From assembly GCF_041886205.1 (NCBI RefSeq), contig NZ_CP169029.1: a stretch of 64,000 bases of DNA, one strand, 5' to 3'. Both the position numbers and the translations under genes were made by a program. A model generated the notes under the pieces. It had not been told where the DNA came from. It saw only the letters and a list, made by a program, of their open reading frames with translations, and made no database searches. This document shows positions 25,496-25,794 of this stretch, one piece after another; the stretch's first letter is position 1; the number at the start of each line of letters is the position of its first letter. The stretch is from Escherichia coli. GTDB lineage: Bacteria; Pseudomonadota; Gammaproteobacteria; Enterobacterales; Enterobacteriaceae.

Positions 25496-25571
25496 TGGAG
25501 CGGGAAACGAGACTCGAACTCGCGACCCCGACCTTGGCAAGGTCGTGCTCTACCAACTGAGCTATTCCCGC
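25496..25571 (-). tRNA. glyY: tRNA-Gly (GCC)
   Basis: 76 nt exact reverse complement of E. coli tRNA-Gly(GCC); coordinates anchored to overlapping track ORF frame. Confidence 0.95.
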
Positions 25572-25606
25572 TTGGGTGGTCTGTGCCTTACAGCACTTTC
25601 AAATTT

Positions 25607-25682
25607 TGGAGCGGGAAACGAGACTCGAACTCGCGACCCCGACCTTGGCAAGGTCGTGCTCTACCAACTGAGCTATTCCCGC
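25607..25682 (-). tRNA. glyX: tRNA-Gly (GCC)
   Basis: Second identical 76-nt copy, 111 nt from first. Confidence 0.95.
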
Positions 25683-25718
25683 TTGGGTGGTCTGTGCTTT
25701 GTAGCACTTTTCAAATTT

Positions 25719-25794
25719 TGGAGCGGGAAACGAGACTCGAACTCGCGACCCCGACCTTGGCAAGGTCGTGCTCTACCAACTGAGCTATTCCCGC
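25719..25794 (-). tRNA. glyV: tRNA-Gly (GCC)
   Basis: Third identical 76-nt copy, 112 nt from second; assignment of V/X/Y names by position only. Confidence 0.95.

Follow-up and report, generated by a model that had tools for sequence, protein, structure and literature searches.

Three tRNA genes of exactly the same sequence stand in tandem within a 64,000-nt stretch of Escherichia coli DNA (hereafter the window), and the questions that they raise are what the array is, how its units come to be alike, and whether anything in or beside it departs from the ordinary. Run on the window, ARAGORN places three tRNA-Gly genes here, all on the minus strand and all with the anticodon gcc at position 34 (Table 1). 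Against the Rfam tRNA model, whose gathering score is 29, every copy reaches 69.1 bits, and all three have a perfect full-length cloverleaf. The 76-nt glyV, glyX and glyY of the window are identical strings in which the CCA end is encoded; three identical 76-mers cannot have originated by chance. Tandem Repeats Finder describes positions 25494–25794 as 2.7 copies of a 111-nt period with 97% matches, and the two unit periods within the array are 112 and 111 nt. An earlier note, made from the letters of this DNA, had claimed three identical tandem tRNA-Gly(GCC) genes of 76 nt, repeating every 111–112 nt and separated by near-identical spacers of 35–36 nt. ARAGORN, Rfam and string identity agree on the genes, their coordinates and their isoacceptor, and the spacers measure 36 and 35 nt with few differences between them. 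The same note would have given up its reading on a different copy number or isoacceptor; ARAGORN returns three copies, all GCC, and the minus strand is the sole item that had been left unstated.

The surroundings of the array identify it. Gene order runs rsgA, orn, the three tRNA-Gly genes, a 17-codon open reading frame and queG, the same as in E. coli K-12 MG1655, where the names at this place are glyV, glyX and glyY (tRNA-Gly(GCC)) and yjeV; the window is oriented as the reverse complement of K-12. Compared with K-12 glyV-glyX-glyY (b4163–b4165), the window has the same tRNA sequences, copy number, spacer lengths (36 and 35 nt), neighbours, promoter and terminator. Over 796 bp, counted from the stop codon of orn to where yjeV ends, only five substitutions separate the two: one lies in the loop of the spacer-1 hairpin (position 25702) and three lie in the A/T tract upstream of the promoter. 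This synteny with orn, yjeV and queG, together with tRNA identity to K-12, bears out the assignment to glyVXY that had been made from the letters. Used as a query, the 2.5 kb that surround the array were 100% identical to E. coli strain wlxctx60 and found a match in 5,425 of 5,426 complete E. coli genomes. E. coli OHT76-1 (NZ_CP135244.1) is the sole matching genome in which the query meets just one tRNA-Gly gene, and there the region from orn through glyVXY to queG seems to be either absent or strongly diverged. Elsewhere in the window, a tRNA-Phe(GAA) gene lies at 54969–55044 on the plus strand, some 29 kb away from the array, and its location agrees with that of K-12 pheU, a known site of island integration.

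On this basis we regard it as nearly certain that the array is the glyV-glyX-glyY operon, transcribed as a single precursor, followed by a leaky terminator that lies over box 1 of datA, and made up of units homogenised by recombination. To this reading our analysis adds the features of the sequence, the synteny and conservation of the locus, and its polymorphisms in copy number and spacers; that RNase E cleaves the precursor in vitro, and that read-through acts on datA, was demonstrated by others.

Table 1. Features of the glyV-glyX-glyY locus in window coordinates, arranged in the direction of tRNA transcription.
Feature	Position	Strand	Basis
orn (oligoribonuclease), upstream neighbour	26005-26550	-	Translation 100% identical to WP_001295188.1 loci
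A8T6 A/T tract upstream of -35, UP-element-like	25885-25900	-	Read from sequence
-35 hexamer TTGCAG	25874-25879	-	Manual reading and conservation
-10 hexamer TATAAT	25852-25857	-	Manual reading and conservation
GC-rich discriminator GCGCCTCCC after -10	25843-25851	-	Read from sequence
5' leader, about 50 nt	25795-25844	-	Inferred start to mature 5' end
glyV, tRNA-Gly(GCC), promoter-proximal, CCA encoded	25719-25794	-	ARAGORN, Rfam, K-12 identity
Spacer 1, 36 nt, starts AAAUUUGAAAA, ends CACCCAA	25683-25718	-	Sequence
Spacer-1 hairpin GUGCU-ACAA-AGCAC	25694-25707	-	Fold, -6.2 kcal/mol, z -3.5
glyX, tRNA-Gly(GCC), middle gene	25607-25682	-	ARAGORN, Rfam, K-12 identity
Spacer 2, 35 nt, same frame as spacer 1, identical to K-12	25572-25606	-	Sequence
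Spacer-2 hairpin GUGCU-GUAA-GGCAC	25583-25596	-	Fold
glyY, tRNA-Gly(GCC), distal copy	25496-25571	-	ARAGORN, Rfam, K-12 identity
datA DnaA box 1 ATATCCACA, one mismatch to consensus	25469-25477	-	Inside terminator left arm
Terminator/attenuator TglyV-X-Y	25437-25473 (about)	-	Imperfect hairpin 25446-25473, then UUUUUGUUG; fold
datA DnaA box 2 TTATCCACA, perfect	25402-25410	-	Motif scan; number from published layout
datA IHF-binding site (IBS) TATCAATAGGTTA, TAAnnnnTTGATW on other strand	25333-25345	+	Consensus match
datA DnaA box 3 TTATTCACA, perfect, box-2 orientation	25240-25248	-	Motif scan; number from published layout
One-mismatch DnaA box TCATCCACA, opposite orientation, candidate datA box 4	25228-25236	+	Motif scan; label uncertain
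yjeV, 17 codons, overlaps queG 3' end, contains DnaA box 3	25209-25262	-	Annotation transferred from related E. coli locus and K-12
queG (epoxyqueuosine reductase), convergent downstream neighbour	24087-25226	+	Annotation

Aminoacylation by GlyRS depends on the identity elements U73, G1:C72, C2:G71, G3:C70, C35 and C36. All of these are present in the array tRNAs, which read GCGGGAA...UUCCCGC-U-CCA with anticodon GCC. Charging with glycine and use in translation would follow from the 100% identity to glyV, glyX and glyY of K-12, and this tRNA-Gly(GCC), known as tRNAGly3, reads the codons GGC and GGU.

A strict scan for consensus promoters found no site at the array, because the -35 hexamer of the glyV-X-Y promoter matches the consensus at only three of six bases; the -35 and -10 hexamers listed in Table 1 are 16 nt apart. 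When the upstream sequences of the first tRNA gene were aligned for 16 genera, the string TTGC...TCGTATAATGCGC-CCCGT proved invariant in 13 genera of Enterobacterales and nearly invariant in Morganella, Providencia and Aeromonas. A/T-rich tracts recur at the same position in other genera, and the A8T6 tract of the window may function as an UP element. From this tract and the GC-rich discriminator we infer a stable-RNA promoter that would be under growth-rate and stringent control. The glyVXY precursor that Kime 2014 used in vitro begins at CCGTAACG, at about position 25844 (PMC3985628), and the primers with which Kasho 2024 constructed delta-PglyV-X-Y (delta-Pgly1) bound the -35/-10 pair (PMC10950094); both published primer sets agree with the promoter call. 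The spacers hold no promoter-like site. With a single promoter upstream and a single terminator downstream, as read from the sequence together with the published primers and description, the array would form one transcription unit.

The two spacers share a common plan, with AAAUUUGAAA directly after the CCA, then a 5-bp hairpin, then CACCCAA before the next 5' end, and they differ from each other by three substitutions and one single-base indel in a run of A. All three substitutions fall in the hairpin loop or turn the closing U-A pair into U-G, so that the stem is retained. Among spacers of the AAATTTG type in other taxa, 38 are distinct, and 37 of these have a hairpin of at least 4 bp at this place. 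The stems there are variously GUGCU, UGGCU, GUAUC, GGCC and others; since the hairpin persists while the stem sequences differ, it is the structure that has been kept and not the sequence. In vitro, the glyVXY precursor is an efficient substrate for RNase E acting by direct entry (PMC3985628), and the A/U-rich, single-stranded starts of the spacers are the likely sites. The operons argX-hisR-leuT-proM and metT-leuW-glnUW-metU-glnVX likewise give multi-tRNA precursors that RNase E enters directly and that have A/U-rich single-stranded spacers (PMC3985628). Unlike them, glyVXY is homogeneous, with three identical genes, and it is unique in having a terminator that overlaps a DnaA box (PMC10950094).

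Transcription from a sigma-70 stable-RNA promoter would accordingly be expected to yield one minus-strand precursor that carries all three tRNAs. RNase E would cleave this precursor where each spacer, and likewise the trailer, begins with A/U-rich sequence. In the normal course of tRNA processing in E. coli, RNase P removes the 5' leader and so matures the 5' end, and the 3' end is trimmed to an encoded CCA; here RNase P would presumably make the 5' ends and exonucleases would presumably trim each unit to its encoded CCA.

Directly downstream of the last tRNA, the locus takes on a second character. The earlier note had held that nothing here looks unusual, a judgement that is fair for the array itself and that overlooked datA, the DnaA-titrating/DDAH locus at 94.7 min, which adjoins the array and lies outside the coordinates reported for it. 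Perfect TTATNCACA boxes occur only twice in the 64 kb, both times in the 250 bp that follow the array (25402–25410 and 25240–25248), 162 bp apart, and an IHF consensus stands between them, which is the arrangement of datA. Published descriptions give the order box 2 – IBS – box 3 (PMC5742627), and the 70-mer datAIBS oligonucleotide of Kasho 2024 (PMC10950094) equals window positions 25298–25367 exactly and includes the IBS. Boxes 1, 2 and 3 and the IHF site stand in the published order and orientation, with no difference detected, the numbers having been assigned from a verbal description of the published layout and not from a published coordinate table. At the position of box 1, which has one mismatch in the window, many other genera carry a perfect TTATCCACA. 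The putative -35 of yjeV overlaps the tRNA terminator (PMC10950094); the yjeV product is annotated as a hypothetical protein, WP_010723271.1.

A terminator scan missed the true, imperfect hairpin at 25446–25473, and the hairpins that it proposed at 25390–25404 and 25284–25306 were not taken as the terminator of the operon. The former is a GC-rich hairpin, ACAGCCTCAGGCTGT, on the minus strand right after DnaA box 2, with a left arm that overlaps the box. TglyV-X-Y itself overlaps DnaA box 1 of datA and allows considerable read-through (PMC10950094). Read-through from PglyV-X-Y across the IBS lowers IHF binding before initiation (Kasho 2024, PMC10950094); deletion of the promoter, or a strong terminator placed after glyY, leads to more IHF binding and mildly inhibited initiation (PMC10950094). 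The array is in this respect a transcriptional input to a replication-control element, a second role that has already been published. In the window, the leaky terminator would let a fraction of transcripts cross the datA IHF site and oppose IHF binding there, and transcription of tRNA-Gly would thereby be coupled to inactivation of the replication initiator DnaA.

One may postulate that this second role is the principal one, such that the array is kept chiefly as a strong, growth-rate-controlled source of transcription for datA and tRNA supply is secondary. In K-12, read-through from PglyV-X-Y is needed for IHF to come off datA in time (PMC10950094), and the distance from array to datA is conserved in Enterobacteriaceae and Erwiniaceae, where DnaA boxes follow the last tRNA at about +20, +87 and +249; the spacing between boxes 2 and 3 is 161–162 bp across genera. 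The orn-linked array is nevertheless kept in Morganellaceae (Providencia, Morganella and Photorhabdus) and in Aeromonas, where no DnaA boxes were found downstream of it, so the array is older than its link to datA and independent of it. The tRNA-Gly(GCC) of glyVXY, moreover, makes up a large share of the mature tRNA pool (PMC9981150), and we consider a primary role as a source of transcription for datA to be quite improbable.

Returning to the array as a tRNA operon with recombining units, its copy number does vary in E. coli. Searches with a synthetic two-copy query found clean two-copy arrays in at least 22 complete genomes, KO11FL (NC_017660.1) among them. Their spans are of both kinds that deletion of one unit should leave, 988 bp with spacer 1 kept and 987 bp with spacer 2 kept, in keeping with the suggestion in the earlier note that such repeats change in number by homologous recombination. 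The frequency of two-copy arrays is bounded at no fewer than 22 and fewer than about 92 genomes, the upper bound being derived from a spread sample. Related isolates share a two-copy allele; some of the two-copy records could be assembly collapses rather than real alleles. A synthetic query for a four-copy array found none among the best 25 matches, a search in which three-copy genomes also reach 100% coverage through overlapping pieces. Strain NWU_4 (NZ_CP123008.1) has a 46-bp deletion, at about 880–960 of the extracted locus, that fuses copies 2 and 3. From copy 2 it takes the 3' end, from copy 3 the first base, and between them spacer 2; the fused remnant carries no annotation, and the deletion may be a real lesion or an error of sequencing or assembly.

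Given such records, the copy number of the window might itself be an artefact of assembly, the true array having two, four or more units. Identical repeats of 111 nt can collapse or expand, and both the two-copy records among genomes described as complete and the odd fusion deletion of NWU_4 could be read in this way. The great majority of sampled E. coli genomes, however, show three copies with exactly these spans, an independent complete genome contains the identical 2.5 kb stretch, and the spacers differ at four positions, so that each unit is uniquely anchored. An assembly error in the window is therefore highly improbable, and those who annotate or assemble this locus should expect three copies while bearing in mind that a two-copy call can be real.

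A second polymorphism concerns the spacer before glyX. The 2.5 kb query aligns unbroken in only 3,797 genomes; the others break at the array because of a 121-bp insertion just before glyX, which makes a spacer of 157 nt. At an identity of at least 95%, this insert is present in approximately 1,606 of 5,426 complete E. coli genomes (about 30%), and in window coordinates its insertion point would fall between 25684 and 25685, in the glyV-glyX spacer. Of the 22 positions of the ERIC2 primer it matches 18, where 2,000 shuffles gave no more than 16, and next to this it matches 15 of 22 in the reverse complement of ERIC1R, giving a contiguous ERIC/IRU core. The insert folds as a long imperfect hairpin (-46.6 kcal/mol, z -3.8), and no Rfam family was found for it. 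The ERIC-bearing allele, as in E. coli O111:H- 11128, has the same three tRNAs, flanks and spacer 2 as the window and differs in this palindromic element before glyX. The window lacks it, with a spacer 1 of 36 nt and a best match to the element, anywhere in its length, of 26 nt (E = 0.24). Like the two-copy arrays, the ERIC-like alleles are observations on other genomes and not features of the window.

That the repeats are attachment duplications of an integrative element, or a tRNA-like non-coding RNA such as the Y-RNA-like YrlA, is so improbable as to be negligible: about 30% of E. coli genomes do break alignment at the array, but the break is the 121-bp insert in spacer 1 and not an island, with flanking genes unchanged, and the Rfam YrlA match at 25519–25657 falls below the gathering score of 69 with its 40.3 bits and covers no more than portions of two neighbouring tRNAs, whereas all three copies are full-length with a perfect cloverleaf. 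Island integration at glyY, which we had considered because alignments stop at the array's 3' end, was likewise rejected, as gene order is unchanged; in the window, neither an integrase nor tRNA 3'-half direct repeats bounding foreign DNA were found at the locus, and queG and yjeV follow directly. An Rfam match to ilvB-OMG (21 bits against 95.9) was rejected as chance.

The history of the ERIC-like element can be followed beyond E. coli. At the same offset it is found in Citrobacter (93% and 90%), Salmonella enterica subsp. diarizonae (88%), Silvania (88%), Kluyvera (86%) and Pluralibacter (83%), hosted by spacer 1 or by spacer 2 depending on the species, and the leader of Citrobacter sedlakii holds an apparent remnant that looks like the two ends of the element. 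Other copies in E. coli, at E <= 1e-5, are mostly one per genome and about 75% identical; the multi-copy nature of the insert is weakly shown. As its nearest other copy in E. coli is only about 75% identical, the element is best seen as an old resident of the array. The pattern suggests that it has moved or been lost by recombination within the array, and the form without it in the window may represent a loss. Where present, the insert would be co-transcribed with the tRNAs, upstream of datA. We found no report of either the ERIC-like spacer element or the two-copy alleles in the searchable literature.

Across species, a pattern scan of representative genomes recovered 120 loci with tandem copies of the exact tRNA. 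The order orn, array, queG is kept throughout Enterobacterales, as a rule with three copies. Among 36 three-copy loci, median spacer identity is 0.90 within a genome as opposed to 0.56 for the same spacer between species, which is the mark of concerted evolution. Unequal crossing-over and gene conversion would keep the units alike and would occasionally delete one. The orn-linked arrays of Aeromonas contain the identical 76-nt tRNA in tandem and differ in having five to seven copies, spacers of 22–38 nt with other sequence, and no downstream DnaA boxes. Six loci in Aeromonas spp. have seven identical tRNA-Gly(GCC) genes, with spacers in two alternating length classes.

It is tempting to connect these polymorphisms to datA, such that the three-copy, two-copy and ERIC-bearing three-copy alleles are functional variants of the timing of replication initiation. 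We consider this unlikely. Were it true, the number and content of the units transcribed before the leaky terminator could set how much read-through reaches the IHF site of datA, the ERIC-like element would persist across genera by modulating read-through or precursor processing, and the window would carry the short, three-copy allele of a polymorphic replication-control module.

The feature in the window is the ordinary E. coli glyV-glyX-glyY operon, about which everything essential is already known, down to the coupling with datA that is its most interesting property; as first stated, the finding is of small consequence, a textbook tRNA operon that had been identified correctly. Its setting has practical consequences for anyone who edits or deletes glyVXY, as the promoter and terminator of the operon belong to the control of datA and hence of replication initiation. 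The ERIC-like element, the concerted evolution of the units and the spacing to datA conserved in two families could together offer a starting point for asking whether the architecture of a tRNA operon tunes datA.
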